Assembly (NCBI GenBank): GCA_003194425.1
Contig: PQXB01000001.1
Coordinates: forward strand, 70,444-102,443
Direction: 5' to 3'
DNA length: 32,000 nt
Source of the DNA: Candidatus Methanophagaceae archaeon
GTDB lineage: Archaea > Halobacteriota > Syntropharchaeia > Alkanophagales > Methanospirareceae
Both the position numbers and the translations under genes were made by a program. The notes beneath the pieces are model-generated. The model was not told the origin of the DNA. It saw only the letters and a program-made list of their open reading frames with translations, and did no database searches. Below are positions 1,927-31,950 of this stretch, one piece after another; the first letter of the stretch is position 1; every line of letters begins with the position of its first letter.

Positions 1927-2550
1927 TCAAACCTCCAAAAAATTCTTTATCAACTTTAGCCCCCCCTCGGTCAAAATTGACTCAGGGTGGAACTGCACGC
2001 CAAAAACATCGTACTCTCGGTGCCGAATCGCCATTATCTCGTCGTCGTCCAAACTCCTCGCCGTCACCTCCAAACAATCTGGAAAACCCTCACCCCCTCT
2101 CTCACCCCCTTTCTCTCCCCCGCCCTCGTCCACTCCGTCCAGCACCAAAGAATGGTACCGCACCACCGAGAGCGGGTTCTTCAGCCCTTTCAGCACATTT
2201 CCGCCGTTGTGCTTCATCAAACTCACCTTGCCGTGCCGCAACACCCTCGCACGCCTTACCCTCGCGCCAAAAACATAGCCGATGCACTGATGCCCCAGAC
2301 AGACGCCCAAAATCTTCTTCCCCTCACCGCAGAACCGCCTCAGCACCTCGTTCGTAACACCCGCCTCTCGCGGCGTCTTCGGACCAGGCGAAATTATTAT
2401 GTGCTTTATTTCCCGCTCCTTTACCAGCCGCTCAATGTAGCCGAGAGTCGCAGTGTTCCGCACCACCACCGGCTCGGCACCCAGCAGCCCAACGTACTGC
2501 ACGAGGTTGTACACGAACGAGTCAATGTTGTCCACTACTAAAACATTCAT
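1927..2550 (-). CDS. trpG: Anthranilate (or aminodeoxychorismate) synthase component II, class-I glutamine amidotransferase
   Basis: Motifs NVLVVDNIDSFVYNL, GVCLGHQ (nucleophile elbow) and FGVQFHPES. ATG at 2550 follows GGGGGAGG (rc of 2560-2567); the track start at 2577 is a GTG. It lies 43 bp downstream of trpE. It contains the G/E-rich insertion DEGGGEKGGERGGEG (about 2085-2130). Confidence 0.85.
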   Translation of the reverse strand: MNVLVVDNIDSFVYNLVQYVGLLGAEPVVVRNTATLGYIERLVKEREIKHIIISPGPKTPREAGVTNEVLRRFCGEGKKILGVCLGHQCIGYVFGARVRRARVLRHGKVSLMKHNGGNVLKGLKNPLSVVRYHSLVLDGVDEGGGEKGGERGGEGFPDCLEVTARSLDDDEIMAIRHREYDVFGVQFHPESILTEGGLKLIKNFLEV

Positions 2551-2593
2551 TTTTTCTCTTGCCTCCCCCTTCTTCACTTCCTCTCTCCTTCTC

Positions 2594-4249
2594 CTACCGA
2601 CAGTCTCCTACCGACAGGCATTCTAACAACGCCCTACACTTGCTCAGCGTCTCATTGTACTCCCGCTCCGGCTCGGAATCGGCAACAATCCCCGCCCCCG
2701 CCTGCAAATAAACTTTCCCATTCTTCCCGTGCCCAGGCTCGAAGACCGCAGTCCGAATTGTTATCGCTGTGTCCATCGCGCGGTTGAAAGAGAAGTAGCC
2801 AACGCAGCCAGCGTAAATCCCGCGCCTCGTCGGCTCCAACTCCTCGATTATTTCCATCGCCCGCACCTTCGGAGCACCCGAGACCGTCCCTGCGGGAAAA
2901 GTCGCTTCCAAAGCGTCAAACTCGTCCTTGACCGCTCGCAACTCCCCCACCACCTCCGTTACAATGTGCTGCACGTGCGAATATTTTTGGGGGTACATAA
3001 ATTTGGTGGCTCTCACGCTGCCGAAGTTGGAGACTTTTCCGATGTCGTTCCTCGAGAGGTCCACGAGCATCAAATGCTCCGCCCGCTCCTTCTCATCGTT
3101 TAGCATCTCCTCCTCCAGCCGCTTGTCCTCCTCTTCCGTCCTGCCACGCGGTCTCGTCCCCGCAATCGGCCAGCTCTCCACTCTCCTCCCTCTCCCTTCC
3201 CGCTTTTTCCTACTCTCTCGCTTTTCCCTACTCTCTCGCTTTTCCCTACTCACTCCAACTCCCTCCGTTTCAACACCCTCAACCCTAACCAGCATTTCAG
3301 GACTCGCACCCACGATTTTCCGCTCGCCCGGTCCGAAATCCAGGAAATACATATAAGGCGACGGGTTCACCTCGCTCAACCGCCTGTAAAACTCGAACGC
3401 AGAACCAGAATCCGAACCCGCACCCGACCCAGAATCAAAATCCGCTTCGAGCCGCTGCGAGAGAACCACCTGCAAAATGTCGCCTGCACGAATGTATTCC
3501 TTCGCCGCCCTCACCCCGCGCTCGTACTCCGCCTGCTCCAGATTTGAAGTAAAATCCAAAGACAACGCGTTTGGTTTCCCCCCTTTTCTGCCCCCCGTCC
3601 CCGCCTTCTTTTTCCAAACGAACTTTGGCACAGGCTTTTCAACTTCAACTTCCAAAGTCCCGTCCTCGCAAAATTCGCTGCACAAAAGAAACGCTTTCTT
3701 CGCCCTGTTGTCCACCACGATATTCTTCTTCGCGAGCAGGAATTCACAATCCGGCTGCTTCAGCGTGTCCGCCGTCGCCGCACCCACGCGCCCCACACCC
3801 TCCCCCTCGCCAAAATCCAAATTCACAAAATAGCGAATAAAATCGTACGAAAGGTAGCCAACGAAACCGCCAACAAACCGCTCTCCCCTCTTCTCTCCTC
3901 CCCTCCTCTCGCCCACGACCTTTAGGTCGTCAAGGAACGCTTTAATCAGGCGTAGTGGATTTTTTTTTACATTTCCTTTCTTCTCTCCTTTACCGAAAAA
4001 CTCATCGTACGCCCTCGTCCTCAAGAGACCGTTCTTTACCGAGAATTTAAACGCCGGGTCGAAGCCGATGATAGAAAACCTCGCCAATTTATCGCTGCCT
4101 TCTCTGGACTCCAACAGGTAAGACTCCTTGCCTCTGCCCTCGCCTTCTCCTTCACTCTCGCCCGCCGTTTCAGTTTTTGCCCTTACAATCTCGTACAGCG
4201 AAGCGGGGCTTGCAAATGGGATTTCCTCGTAGCTTTGAATTATGTGCAT
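2594..4249 (-). CDS. trpE: Anthranilate synthase component I (chorismate-binding enzyme; PabB-like role not excluded)
   Basis: Motifs SYLLES, NPSPYMYF, GASPEMLV, IAGTRPRG, LMLVDLSRND, TFPAGTVSGAPK, RGIYAGCVGY and AGAGIVADS. There are several low-complexity insertions, e.g. REKRESREKRESRKKREGRGRR from an 18-bp repeat at 3211-3253. No trpD/C/F/B/A genes are in the window. Confidence 0.85.
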   Translation of the reverse strand: MHIIQSYEEIPFASPASLYEIVRAKTETAGESEGEGEGRGKESYLLESREGSDKLARFSIIGFDPAFKFSVKNGLLRTRAYDEFFGKGEKKGNVKKNPLRLIKAFLDDLKVVGERRGGEKRGERFVGGFVGYLSYDFIRYFVNLDFGEGEGVGRVGAATADTLKQPDCEFLLAKKNIVVDNRAKKAFLLCSEFCEDGTLEVEVEKPVPKFVWKKKAGTGGRKGGKPNALSLDFTSNLEQAEYERGVRAAKEYIRAGDILQVVLSQRLEADFDSGSGAGSDSGSAFEFYRRLSEVNPSPYMYFLDFGPGERKIVGASPEMLVRVEGVETEGVGVSREKRESREKRESRKKREGRGRRVESWPIAGTRPRGRTEEEDKRLEEEMLNDEKERAEHLMLVDLSRNDIGKVSNFGSVRATKFMYPQKYSHVQHIVTEVVGELRAVKDEFDALEATFPAGTVSGAPKVRAMEIIEELEPTRRGIYAGCVGYFSFNRAMDTAITIRTAVFEPGHGKNGKVYLQAGAGIVADSEPEREYNETLSKCRALLECLSVGDCR

Positions 4250-4357: not shown

Positions 4358-6217
4358 ATGAAGGCAGAAGCAAACGAGAGCGGGATGCGAAGGAGAGAAA
4401 GAACGAAGCGGGTGCTCGTAACAGACCACATTTCAGAGGAAGGGATAAAAAAGCTGCGGGAGTTTGCGGAAGTTGATGTTGAGTTGGGCTTGAGTGAGGC
4501 GGAGTTAAAGGAGCGTCTTGCAGGCTCAGGGGCGGGCTACGACGCGTTAATCGTGCGAAGCGGCACGCAGGTGACGAAAGAAGTAGTGGAGGCGGGGGTA
4601 GGAGCAGGAGAGACGGGTGCCGCCTCCAAATTAAAAATTATCGGCAGGGCGGGCGTCGGCGTGGACAACATTGATGTGGCGACCGCGACCGAGAAGGGGG
4701 TGCTTGTTGTGAATACGCCCGAGGCGAACAGTGTCTCTGCAGCCGAGCACACGATCGCAATGCTGCTCGCTTTAGCACGGAAAATACCGGCTGCGAACGC
4801 GTCGCTGAAATCCGGGGCGTGGGAGCGGAAAAAGCACACGGGCGTTGAGGTGCAGGGCAAGGTGCTTGGAATAATCGGGTTGGGCAGAGTCGGGAGCGAG
4901 GTAGCGAAGCGGGCGGGTGCGGGGGGGCTCGGGATGAGAATCGTTGCTTACGACCCGTTTGTCTCGTTGGAGCGGGCGAGGGAGCTTGGAATTTCTCTCT
5001 TGGGCTTTGACGAGGTTTTTCCTGTCGCTGATTTTTTGACCGTGCACACACCGCTCACGAAGGACACGAGGCACCTCGTCGGTGCGAGGGAGTTCGGGCT
5101 GATGAAAAACGGCGTTCAGGTCGTGAATTGTGCTCGTGGCGGGATAATTGACGAGGCTGCGCTGCTGGACGCGATAAAGAGCGGAAAAGTGGCAGGAGCG
5201 GCGTTGGATGTCTTCGAGAGCGAGCCTCCCGCTGCTACTGCCACTGCCGGCGACGAGGTCGAGGCAGAGCTGCTGGGGCTGGACGAAGTGGTTGCAACTC
5301 CGCACCTTGGTGCCTCCACCGAAGAGGCGCAGAGGACGGCGGCGGTTGCGATTGCGGAGGAGGTGAGGACGGCGTTGGAGGGCAAGCCTGTGCGGAACGC
5401 CGTGAATATGGTTTATGTTGAGGAGGAGTTGCTGGAGGGGCTGAAGCCGTGGTTGGTCTTGGCAGAGAAACTCGGGGGGCTCTCTGCGCAGCTCGTCCCA
5501 ATCGTCTCAAAATCGAGCAGAATTGAAATTGAAGAGTTCAAAATTTCTTACGAGGGCGAAATAGCAGCGGCAGGAAGGGGCAGGGGGACGAGATTGCTAA
5601 CCGTAGCCGTGCTGAAGAGCTTCCTCTCGTGGTTCGCAGACGGCGTTAATTTTGTGAACGCCGAGGCGGTAGCGAGGAAATTCGGGATAAAAGTTACGGA
5701 GAGCAAGACCGCTGGTGGAGGTGGAGGCGTTGAGAATTTCTCGTCGCTGGTCAGCCTTACAACGACTACGCGGACAGCACGGACAGCAACGACTACGCGG
5801 ACAGCACGGACAGCAACGACTACACGAACAGCACGGACAGCAGCGGCGAAGGGGACAGCGACGGCGACAGGGAATGGGAAAGAAAAGAAGACCGTTGCAG
5901 GCACGCTCTTCGGAAGAGGAGGGGGAGGGGGGAGAGACGAGCCGAGAGTAGTAGAAATAGACGGGTTCAGGGTGGACGCAATCCCGTCTGGCTACTTACT
6001 CGTCTGCGGTTTCCTCGACAAGCCGCGAGTCATCGGACCTGTCTGCACGGTTCTGGGCGACGAGGGAGTAAACATCGCAGGAATGCAAGTCGGCAGGGAG
6101 AACGCAGGCGGCGAGGCAGTGATGGTTCTAAATGTGGACAGCCCCGTCGGCGAGGAGACGATAAAAAAGATAAAAAAGGTGAAGAATATTTTTGATGTAA
6201 GGCTGGTAAAGCTGTGA
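4358..6217 (+). CDS. serA: D-3-phosphoglycerate dehydrogenase with C-terminal ACT-like regulatory domain
   Basis: Motifs GRAGVGVDNID, GIIGLGRVGSEVA (NAD-binding), NCARGG and ATPHLGAST. C-terminal ACT-like segment LVCGFLDKPRVIGPVCTVLGDEGVNIAGMQVGR. An alternative ATG at 4385 is possible. It contains TTTRTARTA x3 from a 27-bp repeat. Confidence 0.9.
   Translation: MKAEANESGMRRRERTKRVLVTDHISEEGIKKLREFAEVDVELGLSEAELKERLAGSGAGYDALIVRSGTQVTKEVVEAGVGAGETGAASKLKIIGRAGVGVDNIDVATATEKGVLVVNTPEANSVSAAEHTIAMLLALARKIPAANASLKSGAWERKKHTGVEVQGKVLGIIGLGRVGSEVAKRAGAGGLGMRIVAYDPFVSLERARELGISLLGFDEVFPVADFLTVHTPLTKDTRHLVGAREFGLMKNGVQVVNCARGGIIDEAALLDAIKSGKVAGAALDVFESEPPAATATAGDEVEAELLGLDEVVATPHLGASTEEAQRTAAVAIAEEVRTALEGKPVRNAVNMVYVEEELLEGLKPWLVLAEKLGGLSAQLVPIVSKSSRIEIEEFKISYEGEIAAAGRGRGTRLLTVAVLKSFLSWFADGVNFVNAEAVARKFGIKVTESKTAGGGGGVENFSSLVSLTTTTRTARTATTTRTARTATTTRTARTAAAKGTATATGNGKEKKTVAGTLFGRGGGGGRDEPRVVEIDGFRVDAIPSGYLLVCGFLDKPRVIGPVCTVLGDEGVNIAGMQVGRENAGGEAVMVLNVDSPVGEETIKKIKKVKNIFDVRLVKL
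5762..5842 (+). repeat. 27-bp tandem repeat x3 inside serA
   Basis: acgactacgcggacagcacggacagca at 5762-5788 and 5789-5815 are identical. The copy at 5816-5842 has 2 substitutions. The repeat encodes TTTRTARTA x3 between the catalytic and ACT regions. Confidence 0.9.
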
Positions 6218-6624: not shown

Positions 6625-7176
6625 TTATTTTTTTATCCTACTCTCCAGCCATCCTATTCTCTCCAGCCATCCTACCCTCACTTCCTGCTCCCCCTTCTCG
6701 TCAAACGCAGGAACAAACGGCTTTAGATCCACTAACGGTGTGCCGTCAACCGCGTCAATTCCGCTGACCCTCAGCAAGTTCTCCCTCTGCTTCCCTTCCC
6801 GTCCCCGCTTCCCTTCTCGTCCCCGTCCAAGTAGCCTCACGACAGAAATCCCGATTGGGTTCGGTCTGTTCGGCGACCTCGTGGTGAACAAGCCGTGCAG
6901 CTCGCTGTCCCAAGGCGTCCTCACGAGCAGAGAGTAGCCCTTTGATTTGTGCAGCCAGTAGAGGACGAAGAGATGAGAAAATCCTTCAATGTCTTTTAAC
7001 CCGCCAGCGTACTCCTCAAAGACCTCTATTTCACAGACTACTTCAGATCCCACTTCAGACCTAGACAACGAACTCTGGTAAGGCACTTCTTTAAGCCTCT
7101 TGTAAGGCGTGTGGAGCGTCCCTATTTGCTTTATTCTTGGCTCGGCATTTTGCTCGGTAACCTCAACTTCGGACAT
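6625..7176 (-). CDS. trmO: TsaA/YaeB-family tRNA (t6A37) methyltransferase-like protein
   Basis: Motifs IGTLHTPY, FSHLFVLYWLH, RSPNRPNPIG and VDGTPLVDLKPF. I place the start at ATG 7176 (MSEVEV). The 78-codon upstream extension in the track is Ser/Ala-rich antisense of the crotonase gene. 18-bp repeats occur at 6790-6825 (GREGKR x2) and 6641-6676 (GWLExx x2). Confidence 0.8.
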   Translation of the reverse strand: MSEVEVTEQNAEPRIKQIGTLHTPYKRLKEVPYQSSLSRSEVGSEVVCEIEVFEEYAGGLKDIEGFSHLFVLYWLHKSKGYSLLVRTPWDSELHGLFTTRSPNRPNPIGISVVRLLGRGREGKRGREGKQRENLLRVSGIDAVDGTPLVDLKPFVPAFDEKGEQEVRVGWLERIGWLESRIKK

Positions 7177-7216: not shown

Positions 7217-8050
7217 ATGCCGAAGTTGCCGAAGTACGAGAACCTTTTGTATGCGAAGCACGAAAGAGCAGCGGACGAAGCAGCGGACGAAGCAGCGGAC
7301 GGAGGAGTGGCGACGGTAACGCTCAACCGCCCGAAATCGCTGAACGCACTGAACACGGCGTTGCTGACCGAGTTGCAGGAAGCGTTGCGGGACGCGGAAG
7401 CCGACACCGAGGTGCGTGCAGTAGTTGTAACAGGAGCGGGGGAGAAGGCGTTCTGTGCAGGGGCGGACGTCGGTGAGTTGCTTGAAAAAAGTCCTGCAGA
7501 GGCGAGAGAGTGGTCGAGTTGGGTTCAGGGGATAATTTCGGGGGTGGAGAAGATGAAGAAGCCGGTGGTGGCGAAAATAAACGGGTTCTGCTTGGGCGGT
7601 GGGTTGGAACTTGCGATGGCGTGCGACTTCAGGGTCGCGTCCGAGCGAGCGAGTTTCGGTCAGCCAGAGGTGAATTTAGCAATTATTCCAGGCGGTGGCG
7701 GCACGCAACGACTCCCGAGGCTCGTGGGAAAGACGAAGGCACTGGAAATGCTGACGACAGGAGAGCAAATCGGTGCCGAGCAGGCTCTTCGGCTGGGGCT
7801 GGTGAGCAGGGTCGTGCCTGTGGGGGAGGAAGGAGAGGAGGAGAGTGGTCTCGACGCTGCGGTTTCTGAACTCGTCAAGAAACTGCTCTCAAAAAGCCCT
7901 GCAGCGCTTGGAATAATTAAAAGAGCGGTGAACAGGGGCTTAGAAATGGATTTGGAGCGGGCGTTGGAGTTTGAGGCGGAGTGTTTTGGGCAGGCACTTT
8001 CGAGCGAGGAGGCGAGGCGTGGGTTAAAAGCGTTCTTGAATAAAAGATGA
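7217..8050 (+). CDS. Enoyl-CoA hydratase/isomerase (crotonase) family protein
   Basis: Motifs VTLNRPKSLNAL, GAGEKAFCAGADV, INGFCLGGGLELAMACDFR and FGQPEVNLAIIPGGGGTQRL. A 12-bp repeat x3 at 7268-7303 encodes AADEAADEAADG near the N-terminus. Confidence 0.85.
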   Translation: MPKLPKYENLLYAKHERAADEAADEAADGGVATVTLNRPKSLNALNTALLTELQEALRDAEADTEVRAVVVTGAGEKAFCAGADVGELLEKSPAEAREWSSWVQGIISGVEKMKKPVVAKINGFCLGGGLELAMACDFRVASERASFGQPEVNLAIIPGGGGTQRLPRLVGKTKALEMLTTGEQIGAEQALRLGLVSRVVPVGEEGEEESGLDAAVSELVKKLLSKSPAALGIIKRAVNRGLEMDLERALEFEAECFGQALSSEEARRGLKAFLNKR

Positions 8051-8781
8051 AAGTTGTAATTTCGTTGAGTGGTCTTTTTTTTGAGGACGCAGAGGGCGTG
8101 AAAAAAGTCGCAGCGGTCTTAGAGGAGCTTGCAAAGTCGCACGCACTGTTCGTGGTCGTCGGCGGCGGTGCGAAGGCGCGGGAGTGCATAAAAATAGCAC
8201 GCGAGTTGGGTGCGAACGAAGTCGCTTGCGACTACCTTGGAATTGCAGTAACGCGAATAAACGCGAGGCTGCTTGTCTTGGCTTTAGGTGGCGAGGCTGC
8301 GTGCCCCGAAGTTTTCTCGGACTACGAGGCAGTAGAGAAGGCAGAAGCAAAAACAGAGAGAGGCGGAGGGAAAAGTGGAGGGAAAGGTGGAGGGAAAAAT
8401 GGAGGGAAAAATGGAGGGAAAATAGCGGTGATGGGTGGCGTGAGCCCGGGCTACACGACCGACGCGGTGGCTGCGATTCTCGCCGAATACCTGAACGCCG
8501 ACCTGCTCGTTGACGCGACTTCGGTGGACGGAGTCTACGACGCCGACCCTCGCAAGAACCCGGGGGCGAAGAAATACGAGCGGCTCACTGCGAAGGAACT
8601 CGTAGCCCTGACTGGGAAAGAGGAGTTGAAAGCAGGCTCGAGGATTGTCATTGACCCCGTTGCAGCGAAGATAATCGAGAGAAGCGGGATAAAAACATTC
8701 GTGCTTGACGGACGCGAGCCGCGCAATATTTTTGACGCCGTTCAACTCGGGAAGCATCGAGGCACAGAAATAACGCAGTAA
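8047..8781 (+). CDS. pyrH: Uridylate (UMP) kinase, archaeal type
   Basis: Motifs VISLSG, VVVGGGAKAR, GIAVTRINARLL, GGVSPGYTTDAVAA and ATSVDGVYDADPRKNP. The ATG overlaps the crotonase stop (ATGA at 8047-8050). It contains the GGKSGGKGGGKNGGKNGGK insertion. Confidence 0.9.
   Translation: MKVVISLSGLFFEDAEGVKKVAAVLEELAKSHALFVVVGGGAKARECIKIARELGANEVACDYLGIAVTRINARLLVLALGGEAACPEVFSDYEAVEKAEAKTERGGGKSGGKGGGKNGGKNGGKIAVMGGVSPGYTTDAVAAILAEYLNADLLVDATSVDGVYDADPRKNPGAKKYERLTAKELVALTGKEELKAGSRIVIDPVAAKIIERSGIKTFVLDGREPRNIFDAVQLGKHRGTEITQ
8365..8423 (+). repeat. 12-bp tandem repeat x~5 inside pyrH
   Basis: Units ggagggaaaaNN start at 8365, 8377, 8389, 8401 and 8413. The units at 8389 and 8401 are identical. 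Confidence 0.9.
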
Positions 8782-9411: not shown

Positions 9412-10679
9412 TTCTCCAAATCCTGCAGCCTGACATTCTCGTCCGCCCCGTGAGCGTTGCTCTCCACCGAACTGCCGACGCCGAACGCACAGACCGGCTG
9501 CCCCGTCTTCTGCACGGCGTAGCCGACATCCAAACCACCCTGCACGCCTATTATTTCTTTTTGGACGCCGAAGGAGTTAGACGCCGCAGCCTGCACACGC
9601 TTTACCCAGTCTTCGTCGGGATCAGTAAACATCGGCGGGAATCCGGGCTCGCAACGCAGTTCCAACTCAAGCCCGTGCCTTCTCCTTATGTTTTCTACCG
9701 CCTCCTCAAACTCCTGCACCACCACCTCTACCCGCTCCTCTGGAATGTACCGACGGTCGCCACGCAAGGTGCAACTCGCTGGAATAATATTCTCTTTCAC
9801 TCCCCCACTAACCATCGTAACATTAAAGACCGCGGTCGTGTGCCGCCTGCCCGTCAGCTCGGACATTCGAGGACTACACGCCGCTCTCGACTCCCTGCTC
9901 TCCACCTTCTTTTTCAAGCTCGCTAACTCGCCAATCACGAGCCCCGCTGCTTCTACCGCGTTCACCCCCAAGAACGGAACCGAGCTGTGGCACGACTGCC
10001 CGCACACTTTCAACTCCCAGTTCAGCACCCCGTCGGTCGCCACGCAGACGCCCTCGTTGTCTCCGTCCATGCAGAGCAAAAAATCGCCCTGAAGCAGCCC
10101 CTCGTCCGCGAAGTAGCAGAGCCCCGAGTAAAGCCCCAACTCCTCATCCGTTGTCAACGCGACCCGAATGTTGTACCTGCTCTCCAACCCTCGCTCTTTC
10201 ATTTTGTTTAGGGCAGTCAAAAGCGCTGCAACCGCTCCCTTCGAATCCGCAACGCCTCGCCCGTAGACCCTCCCGTCTTTTACCACTGGCTCAGCGGGGA
10301 ACGGAGGCGTGCTCCAACCCTCTCCTGCGGGAACAACATCCAAGTGCGTGTAAATTACAACCGTCTCTGCCACGCCGAAATCTTTAGTAGCGAGCAGATT
10401 CACCCTCGCACCGCTCAACTCCGCGGTCTTTTGCCGCTCTTTAAAGACTGCCTCTGGCATTTCTACCCGCTCACACTCGAACCCGAAGCCCTCAAAAATC
10501 GGAACAAGCCAGTCCACAATCTCTCCGTAATTCTCACCCGGCGGCACGAAAGTCGGCACCTTTACCAACGCCTTGAGGTAGCCCAAAATCTCCTCCTCTG
10601 CTCCTCTTTCTCTTCCTCTTCCTCCTTCTCTTCCTCCTTCTCTTCCTCCTTCTCTTCCTCTCCTTCTCTCTTCCGTCAT
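9363..10679 (-). CDS. M20-family metallopeptidase (ArgE/DapE/acetylornithine deacetylase-like)
   Basis: Motifs THLDVVP, GRGVADSKG and TTDEELG. ATG at 10679 (MTEE); the track start at 10697 is a TTG. The N-terminus carries GREGGREGGREGGRG from a 12-bp repeat at 10608-10661. Confidence 0.8.
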   Translation of the reverse strand: MTEERRRGREGGREGGREGGRGRERGAEEEILGYLKALVKVPTFVPPGENYGEIVDWLVPIFEGFGFECERVEMPEAVFKERQKTAELSGARVNLLATKDFGVAETVVIYTHLDVVPAGEGWSTPPFPAEPVVKDGRVYGRGVADSKGAVAALLTALNKMKERGLESRYNIRVALTTDEELGLYSGLCYFADEGLLQGDFLLCMDGDNEGVCVATDGVLNWELKVCGQSCHSSVPFLGVNAVEAAGLVIGELASLKKKVESRESRAACSPRMSELTGRRHTTAVFNVTMVSGGVKENIIPASCTLRGDRRYIPEERVEVVVQEFEEAVENIRRRHGLELELRCEPGFPPMFTDPDEDWVKRVQAAASNSFGVQKEIIGVQGGLDVGYAVQKTGQPVCAFGVGSSVESNAHGADENVRLQDLENYVRFLVRLLGSTSTK

Positions 10680-10712: not shown

Positions 10713-11456
10713 ATGCCAAAGAAATTCAGCTGCGTGGCGGTTGGCTGGGACTACGCCTACGACCTCTGCAGGGACGTGAGAGAGGAAATGCGGAAGGCGG
10801 GGTTCGTGCCTGAGGTCGTGGTTGGAGTAGCGAGGGGGGGGTGGTATTTGGCGCGGGTTCTCTGCGACTTCTTTCTGCTCAAGGATTTGGTCAGCCTGAA
10901 GACCGAGCACTGGGGACTTACTGCGACGGTTACAGGGGCGGCGGAGATGAAATTCGGGCTCGACGACGCAGCGAAGCAGAAAATACGCGGTCGGAGAGTG
11001 CTGGTTGCAGACGACGTGACCGACACCGGAGACAGCGTAAAACTTGTGGTTGAGTATTTGGAATCTCGGGAGGTCGGAGCAGGAGCAAAGGAGGTGAGAA
11101 CCGCGGTTCTGCACCACAAAACCTCCTCCCCGTTTGTTCCCGACTTTTACGGCGAGCTGGTGAAGGACTGGAAGTGGGTGGTTTACCCTTGGAGCGTGCA
11201 CGAGGACTTGATGGATTTGGTGGCGAAGGTGGTTTCAAAATCAACCGAGAGGATGAGTTTGTCGGAAATCCGGGCAGCTCTGAAGCAGGAATTTGACTTT
11301 TACGTGCCGTTCCACTTGTTGCGGGAGGTTCTTGAAAATATGCAGTTTCACGGAAAGATAAAAATAAAAAAGGAAAAGGAGGAAAAGGAGGAGGGGGAAG
11401 GAGAGGGAGGAGCGGGAGGAGGAGGGAGAGGTAAGGAGGTGTGGTTGCTGCGTTAA
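10713..11456 (+). CDS. Purine phosphoribosyltransferase (archaeal hypoxanthine/guanine PRT-like)
   Basis: PRPP-binding loop VLVADDVTDTGDS, VVGVARGGW and WVVYPW. I place the start at ATG 10713 (MPKKF). The 5' part of the track ORF (10344-10712) is antisense to the M20 gene. The tail is GA-rich (EKEEKEEGEGEGGAGGGGRG). Confidence 0.8.
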   Translation: MPKKFSCVAVGWDYAYDLCRDVREEMRKAGFVPEVVVGVARGGWYLARVLCDFFLLKDLVSLKTEHWGLTATVTGAAEMKFGLDDAAKQKIRGRRVLVADDVTDTGDSVKLVVEYLESREVGAGAKEVRTAVLHHKTSSPFVPDFYGELVKDWKWVVYPWSVHEDLMDLVAKVVSKSTERMSLSEIRAALKQEFDFYVPFHLLREVLENMQFHGKIKIKKEKEEKEEGEGEGGAGGGGRGKEVWLLR

Positions 11457-13748: not shown

Positions 13749-13880
13749 TTTTTTCTCTCCTTCCCCTTCAAACACCTTTCTCTTCAAACGCACTACTCCT
13801 TTAAAAACTACTCCTTTAAAAAGATGCAAGACAAATCAAAATTGAATAAAAACTATTTAAATTATTTGGTGTTTGGCGCG
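13749..13880. promoter_or_regulatory. Divergent promoter region between mch and the Cas4-like gene, containing a duplicated TATA-like 15-mer
   Basis: ctactcctttaaaaa occurs twice in tandem (13793-13807 and 13808-13822); on the mch strand it reads tttttaaaggagtag. ctatttaaatta at about 13852-13863 lies ~25 nt upstream of ATG 13881, which suggests a leaderless transcript. Confidence 0.5.
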
Positions 13881-15401: not shown

Positions 15402-15554
15402 ATGTGTAGCGTTGGAGGAACCGACTTTGAGTTTGACATTGAGAAGATAGAAGTAGAGCGGTACAAGTGCAGCGACTGCGGGAACAAGTTCGACGCGATG
15501 GGCGAGAAGGTCGTCTGCCCGTCGTGCCTCTCGGAAAATGTCGTGAAAGCGTGA
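15402..15554 (+). CDS. Small zinc-ribbon protein (50 aa), below the ORF-track length cutoff
   Basis: My translation is MCSVGGTDFEFDIEKIEVERYKCSDCGNKFDAMGEKVVCPSCLSENVVKA*. It has CxxC...CxxC. GGAGG at about 15389-15393 lies ~9 nt upstream of the ATG. It fits the same-strand gene series. Confidence 0.6.
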   Translation: MCSVGGTDFEFDIEKIEVERYKCSDCGNKFDAMGEKVVCPSCLSENVVKA

Positions 15555-15600
15555 GTGTGCGTGAGTGAGCGTGAGCGTGCGTGTGCGAGAGGTGCGAGAG
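15551..15600 (+). repeat. Degenerate GTGAGC/GTGCGT hexamer tract between the zinc-ribbon gene and the next ORF
   Basis: gtgagtgtgcgtgagtgagcgtgagcgtgcgtgtgcgagaggtgcgagag. It contains the TGA stop (15552-15554) and five in-frame GTG candidate starts (15565, 15571, 15577, 15583, 15592) for the downstream ORF. Confidence 0.8.
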
Positions 15601-20213: not shown

Positions 20214-20421
20214 AATGAAATGCCTCACAAAAGAATAAGATGGTGGAGAAAAGAGGCAAAAAAGAATAATTTGGAAGGGGCTGGAGGTCTTAACCACCCT
20301 AGCGATGGTAGCAAGCAGCGCAACGGTCTTGTACTGCGGGAGCGGAACGGAAGGGGGAGAAGGGAGAAAAGGGGGAGAAAGGGGAGACGAAGGCGGAGGT
20401 GGTGGCGGTTTTGTCTCGCTA

Positions 20422-23708: not shown

Positions 23709-24350
23709 ATGAAAGCCCTAATAAGCGTCTTCAAGAAAGAGAAAGTAGTAGAGTTCGCAGCAGCACTAAAGAGGCTCGGAGTAGAGGTAGTTGCGACAGA
23801 GGGGACAGCGAGGGTGCTCTCGGAAAACGGAGTCGCAGTGACAAAAGTCTCGGAGTTCACGGGGTTTCAAGAACTGCTCGGTCTCGGTGCAGGAGGTGGT
23901 GCAGGAGGAGGAGTTGGAGGTGGTGCAAGAGGCAGTGCAGGAGGGAGTGGCAAGGTAAAGACGCTGCACCCACGAATTCACGCTGCGATCGCGACTGCAG
24001 AGATCGGAATCGTCGCAGTGAACCTTTTACCTTTAGAATTTTCGGGTGAGGGTGTAGAGCGTGAGGGTGTAGAGCGTGAGGGTGTAGAGCCTTTGGAGGG
24101 AATGGACATTGGCGGTGTTGCCTTGCTCCGCTCTGGGATAAAGAACTTTGAGGAGGTTGCGGTCGTCGTGAATCCGGCGAGGTACGACGCGGTGGTTGAG
24201 GAGCTTGCAGCGGCAGAGGAGGGGAGGTTGTCGCGTGCCACAAAATTGGAGTTGGCAAGGGAGGCGTCAAAATATTTGTTGGCTTACGGGGCAGAAATTG
24301 ACAAAATATTAAGAAGAGAAAAGAAAGACAAGTACAGAGAAGAAAAATGA
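23709..24350 (+). CDS. Stand-alone IMP cyclohydrolase-like (PurH N-terminal, MGS-like) domain protein
   Basis: ALISVFKKEKVVEFAAAL..GVEVVATEGTA, GKVKTLHPRIHAAI, VAVNLLPL and MDIGGVALLRS resemble the PurH IMPCH domain. No AICAR transformylase domain is present. It carries two insertions, a Gly/Ala-rich one and GVERE x3. Confidence 0.7.
   Translation: MKALISVFKKEKVVEFAAALKRLGVEVVATEGTARVLSENGVAVTKVSEFTGFQELLGLGAGGGAGGGVGGGARGSAGGSGKVKTLHPRIHAAIATAEIGIVAVNLLPLEFSGEGVEREGVEREGVEPLEGMDIGGVALLRSGIKNFEEVAVVVNPARYDAVVEELAAAEEGRLSRATKLELAREASKYLLAYGAEIDKILRREKKDKYREEK
24046..24090 (+). repeat. Perfect 15-bp tandem repeat x3 inside the IMPCH-like gene
   Basis: gtgagggtgtagagc at 24046-24060, 24061-24075 and 24076-24090, all identical. 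It encodes (E)GVEREGVEREGVE. Confidence 0.95.
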
Positions 24351-25427: not shown

Positions 25428-25502
25428 GGGCTCGTGGCTTAGCTTGGATAAAGCACCGGCCTTCTAAGCCGGGGATCGCGGGTTCGAATCCCGCCGAGTC
25501 CG
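25428..25502 (+). tRNA. tRNA-Arg (anticodon UCU), 75 nt, no intron, CCA not encoded
   Basis: Hand-folded cloverleaf. Acceptor GGGCTCG/CGAGTCC with one G-U pair. D stem GCTT/AAGC. Anticodon stem CCGGC/GCCGG with loop CTTCTAA. Variable loop GGATC. T stem GCGGG/CCCGC with loop TTCGAAT. Discriminator G. Confidence 0.9.
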
Positions 25503-25628: not shown

Positions 25629-27791
<2,163 letters not shown>

Positions 27792-27828
27792 TTTCCTTCC
27801 TTATTTTAAAGATATTTTCGCATTGTTT

Positions 27829-27993
27829 TTACAGCAATCGCAGAAAATCCTCCCGCCTCAGACCCGCCTCCTTGATAATTCTATTCAGTGTGCCCTTCTT
27901 TAATGTCCCATGAACAGGAACTGTGATTTTGAGCGTTTTGCCGTCTTCAACCTTCTGAAGTCTAACATACGAGCCTCTTTACCGTGTTGCCAT
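27829..27993 (-). pseudogene. hicA: Decayed hicA (HicA/YcfA-type mRNA interferase toxin) remnant
   Basis: My translation is MATR*RGSYVRLQKVEDGKTLKITVPVHGTLKKGTLNRIIKEAGLRREDFLRLL*. The C-terminal two thirds match the HicA pattern (GSHxxL.., VPxH, LKxGTLxxIxKQAGL). The N-terminal ~25 aa are missing. An in-frame TAA lies at 27979-27981. The conserved GSH reads GSY. Confidence 0.65.
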
Positions 27994-28007
27994 AAATCCT
28001 GCCTTTC

Positions 28008-28208
28008 TTAGTGCTCTTCCGCGACTTTGAGCTGCGAGGACTGCAATAGTTCGCCTTCGTCCGGCTCAAGATAAAGCTCTACTGCTTCCTTGATATTTTT
28101 TAATGCCTCTTCGTCTGTCTCGCCTTGAGATATGCTCCCTGGGAGTGCGGGCACGTACACCGTGTACCCTCCCTCCTCTTGCGGTTCCAAAACTACTTTT
28201 AGTTTCAT
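28008..28208 (-). CDS. hicB: HicB-like (UPF0150 family) antitoxin
   Basis: KVVLEPQEEGGYTVYVPALPGSISQGETDEEALKNIKEAVELYLE is the classic HicB N-terminal fold signature. It sits directly upstream of the hicA remnant. Local GC is lower. Confidence 0.75.
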   Translation of the reverse strand: MKLKVVLEPQEEGGYTVYVPALPGSISQGETDEEALKNIKEAVELYLEPDEGELLQSSQLKVAEEH

Positions 28209-28304
28209 ATTTCCTCTTATGCCTCTTACTTTCCGATAGCCTGTATAAAATGTTTTCGATTTTTTTAGATGCTCTAAAAGTGAGAAGTTCTCATTTTATC
28301 CGTT

Positions 28305-28380
28305 CACCTCACTCCTCTCTTCACCTCACTCCTCTCTTCTCCTCACTCCTCTCTTCTCCTCACTCCTCTCTTCTCCTCAC
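28305..28380. repeat. 17-bp tandem repeat, ~4.5 units, straddling the mtaD stop codon
   Basis: Units cacctcactcctctctt at 28305 and 28322, ctcctcactcctctctt at 28339 and 28356, and a partial unit at 28373-28380. The mtaD stop (rc of tca at 28360-28362) lies in unit 4. The units are purine-rich on the mtaD sense strand. Confidence 0.95.
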
Positions 28381-29709
28381 GAGCTCGCGGGCGACTTCTC
28401 CCGCCTTCTCCTTCACCTCCTCTTCGCCCTCCACTTTCCCCCCCTTCATCAAAATCCTGCCGTCGCAAATCAGAGTGTCAACGCAACTCCCGTTCGCAGC
28501 GTAAACAATGTTTGAAATCAAATTGTGGCTCGGCACAAGTTCCGCCTTCTTCAAGTCCAGCAACGCAACGTCCGCCAGCCGCCCCTCTTCCACCGCCCCC
28601 GCGTTCAACCTGAACATTCTCGCCGCGTTGCGTGTCGCAAGTCCAAACGCCTCTTCTGCTGGCAGGCTCGTCGGGCTGCCAAACGCCTTCTGAAACAACG
28701 ACGCAATTTTCATCTCCTCAAAGAGGTCGAGGTTGTTGTTAGAGGCGCAGCCGTCGGTCCCGAGCGCGATATTTTCGTACAACCCCGCCCGCTTCAACTC
28801 CTCGTACGGCAGCCGCCCTGCTGACAATTTCATATTTGACGCCGGGCTGTGCACGATTTTCACCTCGTTCTTCTTCAGCAGCTCCACCTCCCGCCTGCTT
28901 AAGTGAACGCAGTGGCAGGCGACCGTTCTCGGACTCAAGAACCCAAGCCCGTCGAGGAACTCCACCGGCCGCTTCCCCCCGCGTCCTCCTTTACCCCCGC
29001 GTCCTCCTTTACCCCCGCCCCCTTCTCCACCCCCACACCGCTTCACACACTCCTCAACCTCCCCTGCGGTCTCGGACAAGTGAATGTGAACAAGGAGGTC
29101 GTGTTTCTCCGAGAAGTCCCGCACCCAGCAGAGGCTCTCCTCCGAGACCGTGTAAATCGCGTGCGGTCCGAGTGCGAAAATAATCCGTTCTGGAAATTTT
29201 TTGCTCTCTCTGTACAACGCCTCGTTCCTTTTCTGCTGCTCTCTCGCTCTGGTTTCGTCAAAGCCGTCGATAAAAACCGCGGACAACGCCGCCCGCATTC
29301 CGCTCTCGGCAACCGCCCTCGCACTCCCGCGCCAGTGCCAGTACATATCGTTGAAAAATGTCGTCCCGGATTTTATCATTTCCAAGCACGCGAGCCTCGT
29401 GCCCCAGTAAACGTCCTCCTCGGTCAGCCTCGCCTCAGCGGGCCAAATCTTCGTCTCTAACCACTCCTGAAGTGGCAGGTCGTCTGCGTAGCCGCGAAAC
29501 AAAGTCATCGCCGCGTGCGTGTGTGCGTTAAAAAGCCCCGGAATCGCGGCTTTGCCCCTGCCGTCCAGCACAAATTCCGCTTCTCTCTCTTTAAAACCGC
29601 CTGCTCCTGCCTCGCTAACCTCTTCAATTAAATTCCCCTCGATGAAAATGTCCCGCTCTCTGCCTGCTCCTCTACCGCCCAACAGCACGTTCTTTATCAA
29701 GATTGACAT
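28360..29709 (-). CDS. mtaD: Amidohydrolase: 5-methylthioadenosine/S-adenosylhomocysteine (5'-deoxyadenosine) deaminase
   Basis: Motifs ILIKNVLL, IPGLFNAHTHAAMTLFRGYADDLPLQEWL, VHIHLSET, HCVHL and GTDGCASNN. The insertion GGGEGGGGKGGRGGKGGRGGK comes from an 18-bp repeat at 28978-29031. Confidence 0.85.
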   Translation of the reverse strand: MSILIKNVLLGGRGAGRERDIFIEGNLIEEVSEAGAGGFKEREAEFVLDGRGKAAIPGLFNAHTHAAMTLFRGYADDLPLQEWLETKIWPAEARLTEEDVYWGTRLACLEMIKSGTTFFNDMYWHWRGSARAVAESGMRAALSAVFIDGFDETRAREQQKRNEALYRESKKFPERIIFALGPHAIYTVSEESLCWVRDFSEKHDLLVHIHLSETAGEVEECVKRCGGGEGGGGKGGRGGKGGRGGKRPVEFLDGLGFLSPRTVACHCVHLSRREVELLKKNEVKIVHSPASNMKLSAGRLPYEELKRAGLYENIALGTDGCASNNNLDLFEEMKIASLFQKAFGSPTSLPAEEAFGLATRNAARMFRLNAGAVEEGRLADVALLDLKKAELVPSHNLISNIVYAANGSCVDTLICDGRILMKGGKVEGEEEVKEKAGEVARELVRRREE

Positions 29710-29719
29710 TTTTTCTGCC

Positions 29720-29758
29720 CTCTACACTCTACATTCCAAAAACTCTACATTCCAAAAA
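29720..29758. repeat. 16-bp tandem repeat, ~2.4 units, straddling the DUF92 gene stop codon
   Basis: ctctacattccaaaaa at 29727-29742 and 29743-29758 are identical, preceded by partial ctctaca at 29720-29726. The stop (rc of cta at 29745-29747) and the last codons (FGM*) lie in the second unit. The duplicate sits in the 35-bp spacer before the mtaD ATG. Confidence 0.95.
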
Positions 29759-30578
29759 CCTGCCCCAAGAAAATTGCGAAGACGCCACCGAAGAGCGTGG
29801 CTAAAATGTTCACCTGATGCTTGTTCAGTTTTAGCGGGCGTCTGTCCTCAACGCTCGCTCCGAGCAGGCTGTCCACGACGCAGCCTACGAACCCCGAGAA
29901 GATGCAAAATAAAAAAAAACTGTAGTAGGGACCTCCGTCTCCGACGAACGCGAGAGCGGCGAGCGAAATCAAACCCGAGCCGAGCAGAGCAGCGCCGAGA
30001 CCTGCCAGACTGACGCCACCGTTCGTGCCAACAGGAACTTTTTTTAGCGTTGTGATTAGCCTCGGCTCTCCGCCGTCCGCCTGCCCGATTTCTGTTGAAA
30101 ATGTGTCTGCACAGGCGGTAGCGACCGCACCTGAGAAGCCGAGCAGGAAGACGGTCTTTTGAGAGAAGCCGTAAAAAACCGCGAAGACCAGCGGCGACAA
30201 GCCGTTGCCAAGCACATTATTTATGTCTCGCATTCCCTTGCTCCCTCCTCCCTTTCCTCCTCCTCCTCCTCCCTTTCCTCCTCCGCTTTCACCGCCTCCT
30301 CCTCCGCTTTCACCCCCTCCTCCGCCTTCTGCAACGCCGAGCAGTTCTTTCTTCTCGTACTTGTATTTCGTGACCAAGTTCCCAAAGACGAAGAACGCGA
30401 GTAGCAGAAGCAGACCCGCGTAGCCAAACTCGAGCCCCAACGCCAACAAAATCACCACGCCAAGCCCGAGCGTGCCGAGAAACGCGGAGGTGTTTATTTT
30501 GCGTTTTAGGTAAGCGTAAAGCACGAGCGAGAACGCTACCAAGACGGTAAGCCCGGTTAGAGTCGCAGTTTCAAACAT
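29745..30578 (-). CDS. DUF92 / TMEM19-family integral membrane protein (COG1836-like)
   Basis: Multi-pass hydrophobic profile. Conserved-looking blocks are NVLGNGL, ATACADTFSTEIGQ and PVGTNGGVSLAGL. I place the start at ATG 30578 (MFETATL), overlapping the upstream stop by 8 nt (ATGTTTGA). A Gly-rich loop comes from a 21-bp period at 30241-30330. Confidence 0.7.
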   Translation of the reverse strand: MFETATLTGLTVLVAFSLVLYAYLKRKINTSAFLGTLGLGVVILLALGLEFGYAGLLLLLAFFVFGNLVTKYKYEKKELLGVAEGGGGGESGGGGGESGGGKGGGGGGKGGGSKGMRDINNVLGNGLSPLVFAVFYGFSQKTVFLLGFSGAVATACADTFSTEIGQADGGEPRLITTLKKVPVGTNGGVSLAGLGAALLGSGLISLAALAFVGDGGPYYSFFLFCIFSGFVGCVVDSLLGASVEDRRPLKLNKHQVNILATLFGGVFAIFLGQVFGM

Positions 30579-31950
30579 TTTTACACCCCCTCGCAAAAAT
30601 CCTGTCAAAAGTCTCTCTCTCAATTTCTTCGAAAAATATCGCCCGTCCGACCTCGCCACGCAGCCGCCTGACCTCGCGTAGTCCCATCGCGCCGAGAACC
30701 TCAAGCAGCTGGTTCCGCCACGCACCGACGAGATTTATTATCCGCTGCGCCGCCCACTCGGCGTCCACTTCTTCCAACCCCACCGGACACTTCAGTCCCC
30801 GCCCCTTAGCGTTCAGTCCCCCCCCCTTAGCGTTCAGTCCCCGCCCCTTAGCGCACGCTCTGCAGTAGCGGCACTCCAGAGCCAAAAGAAGCGGCAGGTC
30901 AACCGCGGTCAAATCAGCACCGCAAATTATTGATTTCGCCACGTGCTCCGCCATTGCGATTCCTCCGCTCACTACGAGCGTTACCTCGTCCCGGATTCTA
31001 CGCTTCACCAAATGTCTGTGAACCTTCAGGGTCAGGTCATTTACAAATAAACTTTTTTCAAAAGTTTGCTGCGAGGTTTGTGCAGCGTTTTTGATCAAAC
31101 TTTTTTTGAAAGTTTGTCCGTTGAGGTCCGCACAAAGGTGAACGACTTCTACGCCTGCGTAGGTCAGTTCTTCCACGATTTCCGCTACTTCCTCGGCGAC
31201 GCTGAAAGGCACTCTCACCGCGACGAGCGTTCCAGGACTTAACCTCTTCGCCTCGCTCACTTCTCTCAAAACGCTTTCTCCACCGCCGTACTCAAATTCC
31301 ACCATTTTGCACACCTTAATCAAATCTTTCAGCGCAGCGTTTTTGGTCAAACTTTTTCTAAAACTTTGCGGCACCAAAAAATCCTTGTAGCCCGCGTTAA
31401 ACCACTCTCCTGCGTCCACAATCATAAAAGTGCCAAGACGAGAGGCAGCCCTCGCCACCGCTTCGTAGACGCTCTTAAACCTACCAAAAGGGAGTGCGTT
31501 AAAATTAAAAATTATCGGAATTGGAACGGTCAGTGTTGGTGGGACAGGAGACGCGATCTTCCCGTTACCGTGGACGTTACCGTGGGTGTTAACGTGGGTG
31601 TTAACGTGGGTGTTAAACTTGAGAGCAGGTAGCTTTCGCCCGACGTCCACTGCGGTGCTGATGTATTCGCGTCCGTGAATCCCGTCCCTCGTGGGTCGCA
31701 CGATTTCTGACATGTCCGTCCACATTGAATCGAAGCCTTCGCCTGAAAACGGTCCTGGGTAGCCCGCGCCAGAGACTGGGATCTTGCCGGTCTCCGCCTG
31801 GTACCAGTTCGTGCTGATTATTTCGGGCGTCCAGTAGGAGTCGCCGAGCAGGGAATATTCTGGGTTTTCACGGATGCTCAACGCCTCTCTCGGACACTCC
31901 TGCACGCAGCGGAAGCAGCCTTTACAGCGGTGTCCTTCGGGTTCTGCCAT
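30571..31950 (-). CDS. Glutamate-synthase domain-2-like (GltB FMN-binding domain) protein with N-terminal 4Fe-4S ferredoxin motif
   Basis: CKGCFRCVQECP near the N-terminus. GltB-domain-like blocks are MSEIVRPTRDGIHGRE and VVSGGIAMAEHVAKSIICGADL. The frame stays open upstream of ATG 31950 to the window edge (..VCVYEVHKRGEEDARK-M), so the true start may lie beyond 32000. Confidence 0.65.
   Translation of the reverse strand: MAEPEGHRCKGCFRCVQECPREALSIRENPEYSLLGDSYWTPEIISTNWYQAETGKIPVSGAGYPGPFSGEGFDSMWTDMSEIVRPTRDGIHGREYISTAVDVGRKLPALKFNTHVNTHVNTHGNVHGNGKIASPVPPTLTVPIPIIFNFNALPFGRFKSVYEAVARAASRLGTFMIVDAGEWFNAGYKDFLVPQSFRKSLTKNAALKDLIKVCKMVEFEYGGGESVLREVSEAKRLSPGTLVAVRVPFSVAEEVAEIVEELTYAGVEVVHLCADLNGQTFKKSLIKNAAQTSQQTFEKSLFVNDLTLKVHRHLVKRRIRDEVTLVVSGGIAMAEHVAKSIICGADLTAVDLPLLLALECRYCRACAKGRGLNAKGGGLNAKGRGLKCPVGLEEVDAEWAAQRIINLVGAWRNQLLEVLGAMGLREVRRLRGEVGRAIFFEEIERETFDRIFARGCKNV
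30791..30853 (-). repeat. 21-bp tandem repeat x3 inside the GltB-like gene
   Basis: ttcagtccccgccccttagcg at 30791 and 30833, and ttcagtcccccccccttagcg at 30812. They encode (A)KGRGLNAKGGGLNAKGRGL. Confidence 0.9.
31564..31611 (-). repeat. 12-bp tandem repeat x4 inside the GltB-like gene
   Basis: gttaccgtggac, gttaccgtgggt, gttaacgtgggt, gttaacgtgggt. They encode NTHVNTHVNTHGNVHGN. Confidence 0.9.

Follow-up and report, generated by a model that had tools for sequence, protein, structure and literature searches.

In-frame tandem repeats in most housekeeping genes of a stretch of ANME-1 DNA point to a probable lineage-specific, still-active repeat-forming process

A 32,000-nucleotide stretch of contig PQXB01000001.1 (positions 70,444 to 102,443; hereafter the window) carries a contiguous run of housekeeping genes from an uncultured archaeon of anaerobic methanotrophic group 1 (ANME-1; Methanophagales). 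Short tandem repeats occur in most of these genes and in the spacers between them, far more densely than in related genomes, and their copy number differs among closely related strains. The reading that we favor, with a probability of roughly 0.7, is that tandem duplication and slippage form a lineage-specific and still-active process, on which selection acts as a filter by keeping the reading frame and admitting only hydrophilic loops that the protein tolerates. The original prediction, made from the sequence of the window, had listed examples of such repeats in named genes. Tandem Repeats Finder (TRF) and a scan for perfect repeats found every one of them within a few bases of where it had been placed, and Pfam agreed with the gene identities.

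Arrays were called with TRF at a score of at least 50, with overlapping calls merged; perfect repeats of at least two copies and at least 24 nt were scanned for separately. TRF yielded 31 merged arrays in the 32 kb (0.97/kb), whereas 200 within-gene codon shuffles, our chance control, gave 3.5 ± 0.65 with a maximum of 6. Across comparison loci from ANME-1 and other archaea (ca. 1.95 Mb in total), the densities were 0.08-0.09 arrays/kb for ANME-1-like loci and 0.04-0.05 arrays/kb for the others, which places the window 11- to 12-fold above its ANME-1 relatives and about 20-fold above other archaea (Poisson P for at least 31 arrays, 1.6e-22). A density typical of archaeal genomes, one outcome that would have spoken against the original prediction, was therefore not what we found. 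The nearest relatives found (CofG 73-74% identical, GC 44-46%) have about 0.05 arrays/kb, and perfect repeats occur at 0.50/kb in the window versus 0.024/kb in the comparison loci. The description of the repeats as near-universal overstates their spread: 18-19 of 26 genes (ca. 70%) have at least one array. Sister-strain sequence beyond the window, about 30 kb that includes oxidative-stress genes and the operons of ribosomal proteins and RNA polymerase, has 0.6-1.6 arrays/kb, with a 5-kb stretch at 0.2 arrays/kb as the lone exception.

The repeat loci are polymorphic among strains. Metagenome scans and exact-protein look-ups with the repeat-free CofG, DUF2284 and Ham1 brought up over 20 contigs of this species in ENA, JGI, NCBI and Logan, each assembled independently and 97-99.9% identical; an exact-sequence look-up of the window HdrA gave no match because its (GE)n allele is strain-specific. 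Strain alignments of 16 contigs (154 kb) contained 106 indels and 1132 substitutions. Ninety-two of the indels were multiples of three (3n), and nearly all were whole-unit changes at repeat loci; most of those outside the window arrays duplicated units that the window has only once, at loci with 2-4 copies elsewhere. When genotyped by flanking anchors, with lengths expressed relative to the window, alleles differed by integer units (hdrA, -6 to -36 bp; the Cas4-like gene, ±15/30; g14820, +15/30/45; serA, -54; the 17-bp array at the end of mtaD, -34), and all coding alleles differed by 3n, keeping the frame. PyrH occurs as proteins of 240, 244, 248 or 252 aa (4-7 units), the remainder of which differs at 1-3 residues. 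Over 2.7 kb, contig L081 and the window are separated by just three substitutions and a single 18-bp deletion, whose position is precisely that of the hisD repeat. Mismatches are 3.6-fold denser within arrays, although this figure may be inflated by register shifts. Between-strain dN/dS is 0.14 (684 synonymous and 310 nonsynonymous differences); thus, the host genes are functional and under constraint. The existence of multi-allelic loci among strains that are 97-99.9% identical shows directly that expansion is recent or ongoing, as had been proposed.

Reading frame separates the arrays within genes from those between them. With start codons corrected (DP2 from M40, mch from M28, M20 peptidase from M7), 23 arrays lie wholly inside coding sequences (0.78/kb), and 22 of them have 3n periods, in line with the earlier claim that every intragenic unit is a multiple of three. 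The sole exception is the phosphoribosyltransferase (PRTase) tract, a composite of 3- and 9-bp sub-periods. Intergenic and boundary DNA holds eight arrays in 2.5 kb (3.2/kb, ca. fourfold the coding density) with periods of 14, 15, 10, 15, 15, 9, 17 and 16 bp; half are non-3n, and periods of 14, 10, 17 and 16 bp are found solely between genes or at gene ends. These mixed periods and the higher intergenic density, together with the 3n rule in genes and the dN/dS of 0.14, agree with the predicted filtering by selection for frame. The units are independent of one another, any 11-mer being shared by only 4 of 465 array pairs, all of them trivial GA tracts. Because the units are locus-unique, insertion of a dispersed mobile repeat of the MITE or REP type was ruled out; a CRISPR array was ruled out because the copies stand head to tail without spacers.

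Coding repeats are also compositionally distinct. On the sense strand they comprise 51% G, 31% A, 8% T and 10% C, compared with 34.5%, 25%, 20% and 20% in the remaining coding sequence; purines thus reach 82% in the repeats versus 59% elsewhere, as the claim of sense-strand purine richness would have it. Among the encoded residues, Gly accounts for 33%, Glu for 19%, Arg for 11% and Lys for 8%, whereas Met, Tyr and Pro are absent.

Orthologues and solved structures lack the inserts. This comparison used solved-structure alignments and one protein search, and DP2-locus synteny reached only a few neighbors. The N-terminal 33 residues of the M20 peptidase are unaligned in a 72%-identical orthologue, and gaps of 17 and 14 aa mark the PRTase and the metallo-β-lactamase (MBL)-fold protein against orthologues of 63% and 79% identity. 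PyrH residues 95-124 stand where solved archaeal UMP kinases have about 6 residues, and uL6 residues 51-73 (ca. 23 aa) are a pure insertion between residues 50 and 51 of the Pyrococcus furiosus protein. In HdrA, residues 307-350 and 499-536 take the place of 13 and 15 residues in the solved structure, the (GE)n loop being about 23 aa longer, and TrpE residues 326-352 (27 aa) have no counterpart in solved homologues. The inserts, judged by alignment to orthologues of 63-79% identity and to solved homologues, are thus lineage-specific and recent rather than ancient. The claim that repeats interrupt conserved enzymes stands for these proteins, uL6 included, but its polymerase example probably does not: the repeat at 20350-20387 is probably non-coding, because gene calls in other assemblies give a DP2 of 1084-1086 aa and the alignments of relatives begin at residue 33-47. 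Likewise, the mch repeat (13792-13822) is probably upstream of the true start, because the MCH domain begins at residue 30.

PyrH offers a closer view of one insertion site. Most of 120 homologues are 219-229 aa long and insert-free. A few other ANME-1 sequences (P0003, P0004, P0010, P0014, P0016 and P0099) carry different, unrelated inserts at the same loop (window 8329-8422), such as 'HDKPLQGLR...', which is internally duplicated in P0014, and 'GEGDGDGSGRGEGG' in P0099. These alignments mark the loop as a permissive, recurrent insertion hot spot in ANME-1, and repeat-driven insertion may occur across the group at a lower rate. An AlphaFold2 model of PyrH built from the 120-sequence alignment (mean pLDDT 86.7, pTM 0.86) falls below a pLDDT of 50 only at residues 107-122, which are the repeat, modeled as coil between a helix (93-105) and a strand (126-130). 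In this one protein, the encoded repeat peptide is therefore predicted to be disordered.

From the left, the first array is a 12-bp unit in 2.8 copies in trpG (2089-2121, minus strand; GGEKGGERGGE), with a +24-bp allele in contig L188. A perfect non-3n duplication (14 bp x2) spans the boundary between the trpE stop and the trpG start (2590-2617), and trpE itself has 18 bp x3.1 (3201-3255, minus) encoding SREKRESREKRES within its 27-aa insert. The serA array on the plus strand (27 bp x3.9, 5760-5872; (TTTRTARTA)n) is two units shorter (-54 bp) in L188. Two 18-bp arrays lie in trmO on the minus strand, one C-terminal (x2.7, 6635-6679; GWLERIGWLES) and one x2.1 (6789-6825; GREGKRGREGK). On the plus strand, the enoyl-CoA hydratase gene has a perfect 12 bp x2.9 (7267-7301; AADEAADEAAD), with a +12-bp allele in four of five sister contigs, and pyrH has 12 bp x4.8 (8365-8422; (GGKx)n). 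The N-terminal M20 peptidase array (12 bp x4.8, 10604-10660, minus; GREGGREGGREGG) has alleles of -15, -12 and +36 bp. The C-terminal PRTase tract is rich in G, E and K (11370-11439, plus; sub-periods 3, 9 and 28 bp) and has a +30-bp allele in L187.

The longest unit, 123 bp x2.5 (12311-12639, minus), encodes a 41-aa repeat in g11476 and is reduced by 123 bp in L187 and L188. This gene (11476-12756, minus) encodes an N-terminal hydrophobic segment, probably a membrane anchor, then the coiled-coil-like repeat in 2.5 copies and, at the C terminus, a nuclease domain of the NucS_C / PD-(D/E)XK type (Pfam 3e-20). The canonical NucS N-terminal domain is missing, and by its domain architecture the protein is not a canonical EndoMS.

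The array upstream of the likely mch start is a perfect 15 bp x2.1, at which contigs of other assemblies stop. Next to it, the Cas4-like gene (14181-14314, plus) combines 24 bp x2.4 with 15 bp x4.7 ((SWEGS)n) in alleles of -30, -15, 0 and +30 bp, and g14820 has a 15-bp unit (SSTEQ; 14895-14930, plus) present once in the window and two to four times in sister strains. Intergenic arrays follow at 15549-15583 (10 bp x3.5, non-3n) and, upstream of the MBL gene, at 16066-16097 (15 bp x2.1). The MBL-fold gene has a 6/18-bp (GE)-type repeat (16669-16704, plus; alleles 0, +12, +15 and +18 bp), and the spacer between the convergent MBL and cofG genes has 15 bp x3.4 with a 5-bp sub-period (17013-17063) in seven length alleles, some of them non-3n. 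The hisD array (18 bp x2.1, 19260-19297, minus) is single-copy in L081 and shows sequence variants within copies. In uL6, a perfect 15 bp x2.7 ((EEKQT)n; 19721-19761, plus) has alleles of -15, 0 and +15 bp, and the L6-DP2 spacer holds the array discussed above (9 bp x4.2, 100% purine, plus), which is invariant in 12 strains.

Further right, the gene of the IMP cyclohydrolase (IMPCH)/MGS-like protein has two plus-strand arrays: a Gly-rich 12 bp x4.9 (23886-23944; -12-bp allele in 6 of 11) and a perfect 15 bp x3.0 (24046-24090; (EGVER)n; -15-bp allele in 5 of 11). The minus-strand hdrA gene has the (GE)n array (6 bp x10, 26224-26283), with six length alleles from 0 to -36 bp among 12 genomes, and 15 bp x1.9 in its second insert (26712-26740), with a +36-bp allele. 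A non-3n 17 bp x4.6 (28303-28380, minus) runs from the final mtaD codons into the 3' intergenic region and has an allele shorter by two units (-34 bp). Within mtaD there is 18 bp x2.4-3.3 (28976-29034, minus; GGKGGRGGKGGRGG), and the mtaD-DUF92 spacer has a perfect, non-3n 16 bp x2.1 (29726-29759). On the minus strand, the DUF92 membrane protein has a 21-bp period in a Gly-rich loop (30244-30329; -27-bp allele), and the GltB-like gene has 21 bp x3.0 (30791-30853; (AKGRGLN)n; -6-bp allele) and 12/24 bp x4.5 (31563-31616; (NTHV)n; -12-bp allele), the latter being the sole purine-poor coding repeat.

We propose that a lineage-specific mutational process duplicates short local segments in tandem, mostly of 12-27 bp, and that whole units are then gained or lost. 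The molecular step would be slipped-strand mispairing, that is, out-of-register realignment during replication or repair. The process would act on any DNA in the sampled regions, a view taken because intergenic density is higher with mixed periods, units are locus-unique and alleles differ by whole units. Within genes, purifying selection would retain only 3n units, mostly purine-rich ones that encode Gly, Glu, Arg and Lys, at termini or surface loops that tolerate a flexible, disordered peptide. Point mutation would later decay older arrays into looser low-complexity tracts rich in the same residues, and the net outcome would be conserved housekeeping proteins about 5-15% longer than their orthologues. 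The root cause may be a trans-acting change in replication or repair.

An alternative places the cause entirely in cis: purine loading and raised third-position G would create G-rich tracts, with quadruplexes, triplexes and short direct repeats, on which ordinary machinery slips more often. We consider this unlikely, though the most probable of the alternatives. Judged from DP2 and cofG codons, the window lineage has a third-position GC (GC3) of 0.63-0.67 and a third-position G (G3) of 0.38-0.39, versus 0.41-0.55 and 0.28-0.32 in the nearest ANME-1 relatives, and its repeats are half G. The window has ten canonical quadruplex motifs of the G3 type (0.31/kb versus 0.034/kb in relatives, a ninefold excess), mostly within repeats and in every case on the non-template (sense) strand of the gene concerned; they include 2093-2125, 3783-3806, 4911-4933, 6798-6824, 11393-11426, 19261-19284, 20353-20384, 26239-26283 and 26770-26796. 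However, only about 8 of 31 arrays contain such a motif, and the enrichment may be a by-product and not a cause of the repeats. A number of arrays are not rich in G (serA, the NTHV array of gltB, the intergenic 15- and 16-mers), and codon-shuffled sequence of the same composition yields few arrays, although that control tests chance and not slippage propensity. Third-position purine loading of about 0.6 is common to all ANME-1, and relatives with a GC3 of 0.61-0.74 and a similar purine skew have 0-0.12 arrays/kb; those with the same purine loading are not repeat-rich either. Composition alone is therefore insufficient, and high GC3 or purine loading was rejected as a sufficient cause; the cause is thereby pushed toward a lineage-specific change in replication or repair.

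A somewhat less probable account is that the repeats are adaptive, their density reflecting positive selection for disordered, charged or Gly-rich loops (for thermoadaptation, solubility or condensates) and not raised mutation. An adaptive role has likewise been argued for Borg amino-acid repeats. The coding repeats are enriched in disorder-promoting Gly, Glu, Arg and Lys, and the same PyrH loop gained different inserts independently in other ANME-1 lineages. The amino-acid composition of the window proteins (IVYWREL 0.437, charged-minus-polar 0.146) suggests a thermophile. Against this account stand the fourfold higher density and non-3n periods of intergenic repeats and the free variation of copy number among strains that occur together. 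Nor are repeats plentiful in other relatives that are thermophilic or high in GC (Alkanophaga L057/L064, Hadarchaeum L076, L092, L099), and the papers on the genome of the 70 °C ANME-1c culture make no mention of such repeats.

It is very improbable that the window is a Borg-like extrachromosomal element of ANME-1 with captured host genes, to which the repeats belong. The repeats do resemble those of Borgs in most respects, and two window junctions differ from other assemblies, but the genes form a contiguous, typical housekeeping set (uL6, L32e, PolD DP2, HdrA, Mch, CofG and trp/his/ser/pyr genes) with 63-79% identity and partial synteny to ANME-1 orthologues. They lie on both strands, unlike Borg replichores, at a GC content of 54% and under the constraint described above, and sister contigs run on into ribosomal-protein and RNA-polymerase operons. 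Least probable of all is an assembly or sequencing artefact: assembly from short reads may shorten or lengthen tandem repeats, and several contigs of other assemblies stop at one, but the same loci and units recur in more than 20 assemblies from different assemblers and samples (ENA megahit, SPAdes, JGI, Logan, NCBI metagenome-assembled genomes), the arrays of 30-110 bp are under read length, alleles differ by whole units with the frame kept, and a 4.85-kb stretch of one contig, five arrays included, matches the window at 100% identity.

Several points weigh against a lineage-specific duplication process. The G/purine bias of coding repeats could be a cis sequence preference of the process and not the outcome of selection alone. 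That the cause acts in trans is purely inferred, and the PolD catalytic subunit gave no lead: at 190 near-invariant columns DP2 has only two conservative changes, I397V and G836A, so an active-site change was set aside as the cause. The per-locus rate of length change, estimated from counts of polymorphic loci and substitution density at about 100 times the per-site substitution rate, is modest beside the rates of classical hypermutable repeats. The expression genome-wide in the original prediction fits the similar density in the 30 kb beyond the window, but only about 60 kb of sequence from this species (the window plus those other neighborhoods) was sampled. Lastly, the window junctions at ~1926 and ~13835-13859 are absent from every other assembly, and the contig may be rearranged or chimeric there; this leaves the repeat loci untouched, since all of those checked were confirmed in independent assemblies.

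The window belongs to an ANME-1 lineage and has a GC content of 54%. Its Pfam gene set comprises trpG, trpE, serA, L32e, trmO, enoyl-CoA hydratase, pyrH, Ham1, M20 peptidase, PRTase, mch, the Cas4-like nuclease, the MBL-fold protein, cofG, hisD, uL6, PolD DP2, the IMPCH/MGS-like gene, DUF2284, hdrA, an mtaD-like amidohydrolase, DUF92 and the GltB-like gene. A tRNA-Arg(TCT) between DUF2284 and hdrA (25428-25502, plus) is the sole Rfam/ARAGORN match. Purines make up 58-66% of sense strands. DP2 is 63-75% identical to that of Methanophagales metagenome-assembled genomes (MAGs), and PyrH is identical to NCBI PXF50926.1, which, like MCW7071338.1, is labeled 'Candidatus Methanophagaceae / Methanophagales archaeon'. 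G60ANME1 (L043) was ruled out as the lineage in question by a DP2 identity of only 63% and a GC content of 46%, and the 70 °C ANME-1c MAG by its GC content of 47.8%.

At the left edge, positions 1-1926 (minus) hold a partial gene that leaves the window and encodes a right-handed β-helix/NosD-like surface protein with a signal peptide (Pfam Beta_helix 7e-33). These 1.9 kb have a GC content of 42.5%, versus 54% elsewhere, and no tandem repeats. They have no match among the sister-strain contigs, which carry a 354-357-aa gene beside trpG instead, and may represent either an island gained by horizontal transfer or a chimeric join in the assembly. The second breakpoint is the mch/Cas4-like spacer (13835-13884). 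In seven sister assemblies the Cas4-like gene is preceded by an L18e-L13-S9-RpoN operon, mch is followed in two other assemblies by oxidative-stress genes or by PHP/PIN genes, and several contigs stop at the 15-bp repeat beside the spacer. Either rearrangements are frequent at this site or the window is misassembled there. The true start of the Cas4-like gene is probably its second Met (13884).

Two further features flank hdrA. Between hdrA and mtaD (~27800-28250, minus) lies a 66-aa HicB-like antitoxin reading frame with a possibly disrupted HicA-like frame, and sister contigs have HicB_lk_antitox annotated at the same spot; a 2026 paper describes hicAB loci as hot spots of structural variation in ANME-1. 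Some strains (L171, 10841-14569; L173, 3847-7485) have an additional gene of 1212-1242 aa between DUF2284 and hdrA; one segment of it resembles hdrA, at about 80% identity to window 26899-27749, and it has long repeats of its own (18 bp x7.6, 24 bp x3).

The closest known parallel is the Borgs of Methanoperedens, giant linear extrachromosomal elements in which tandem repeats and the amino-acid tandem repeats that they encode are pervasive, while Methanoperedens chromosomes almost lack them (Schoelmerich et al. 2023, PMC9879509). Such repeats had been presented as peculiar to Borgs. As in Borgs, near-perfect repeats are far denser than in related genomes, units in reading frames are divisible by three, units are unique to their locus and flanked by partial copies, copy number varies among close relatives, substitution density is raised inside repeats and the encoded peptides are disordered (in the window, from the PyrH model only); intergenic units are mostly non-3n in Borgs and half so in the window (PMC9879509). 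By the strict criteria of that study (perfect, at least three units, at least 50 nt), the window has two regions covering 0.33% of bases, compared with 0.62% for the average Borg genome and no more than 0.01% for Methanoperedens genomes (PMC9879509). The differences are as marked. Window repeats are enriched in G (51%, with A at 31%) and encode Gly, Glu, Arg and Lys, whereas Borg repeats are enriched in A (48%) and are of the Pro/Thr/Asp/Lys type. The carriers in the window are cytoplasmic core enzymes and uL6, with only DUF92 and g11476 in the membrane, whereas Borg carriers are mainly extracellular or membrane proteins, and many window arrays have only 2-3 copies. In further contrast to Borgs, the neighborhood is a chromosome-typical ANME-1 housekeeping region with genes on both strands and synteny to ANME-1 MAG contigs. 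No Borg marker such as PolB9 was found in the window.

Other systems resemble the window less closely. Low-complexity inserts have reportedly been described in housekeeping proteins of Plasmodium falciparum, by Pizzi and Frontali in 2001 and in later work. There, too, conserved enzymes are broken between conserved blocks by lineage-specific, biased, fast-evolving, non-globular inserts that mirror the nucleotide bias of the genome, with slippage as the presumed engine. The parasite, however, is an AT-rich eukaryote with Asn/Lys tracts, whereas the window comes from an archaeon whose inserts are G/purine-rich, encode Gly, Glu, Arg and Lys and include many perfect minisatellites of 12-27 bp. With bacterial variable-number tandem repeats (VNTRs) the window shares head-to-tail repeats and strain alleles that differ by whole units; for VNTRs and contingency loci, the mechanism is accepted to be slipped-strand mispairing. 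Contingency loci have 1-8-nt units, often non-3n, whose gain or loss changes the frame or the promoter spacing and turns a small number of surface or virulence genes on or off; in the window, coding units are 3n, the frame is never broken and about 70% of ordinary genes are affected. Phase-variable contingency loci were rejected because all coding alleles are 3n and frame-keeping. Mycobacterial interspersed repetitive units, as dispersed copies of one element family, differ from the locus-unique units seen here. In prokaryotes at large, short repeats proliferate to form low-complexity regions, which decay with time; such regions are found mainly in young families that evolve fast and are lacking from 30-50% of gene families, for the most part housekeeping and essential ones (Persi et al. 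2023, PMC10120016). The window lineage departs from that pattern in that old housekeeping families carry repeats. The original prediction had not recognized the phenomenon as a property of a named lineage; literature searches on ANME-1 tandem repeats, archaeal amino-acid tandem repeats and in-frame repeats of thermophiles found no earlier description for ANME-1, although the Borg case, the only one described so far and one of extrachromosomal elements instead of a cellular chromosome, is closely similar.

We regard it as an even bet that the window represents a Borg-like repeat syndrome on a cellular archaeal chromosome, at equal or higher density and in core housekeeping enzymes, and that the repeat-forming activity is a state of cellular replication or repair that can switch on in one ANME lineage. 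Given a chromosome with such a syndrome, the phenomenon would not be tied to Borg biology, and one repeat-rich species set against dozens of repeat-poor ANME-1 relatives would offer a comparative handle on its cause. The arrays provide many dated, polymorphic cases of disordered loops entering essential enzymes (HdrA, uL6, PyrH, TrpE, SerA) under purifying selection, with a bearing on the evolution of protein length and disorder. In practice, such genomes fragment in short-read assembly, gene calls differ in length from strain to strain, and strains of this ANME-1 population could be typed by these loci. If a cellular repeat-forming state is indeed at work, this widely sampled uncultured species would be a natural system for finding its cause and for watching disordered regions arise.

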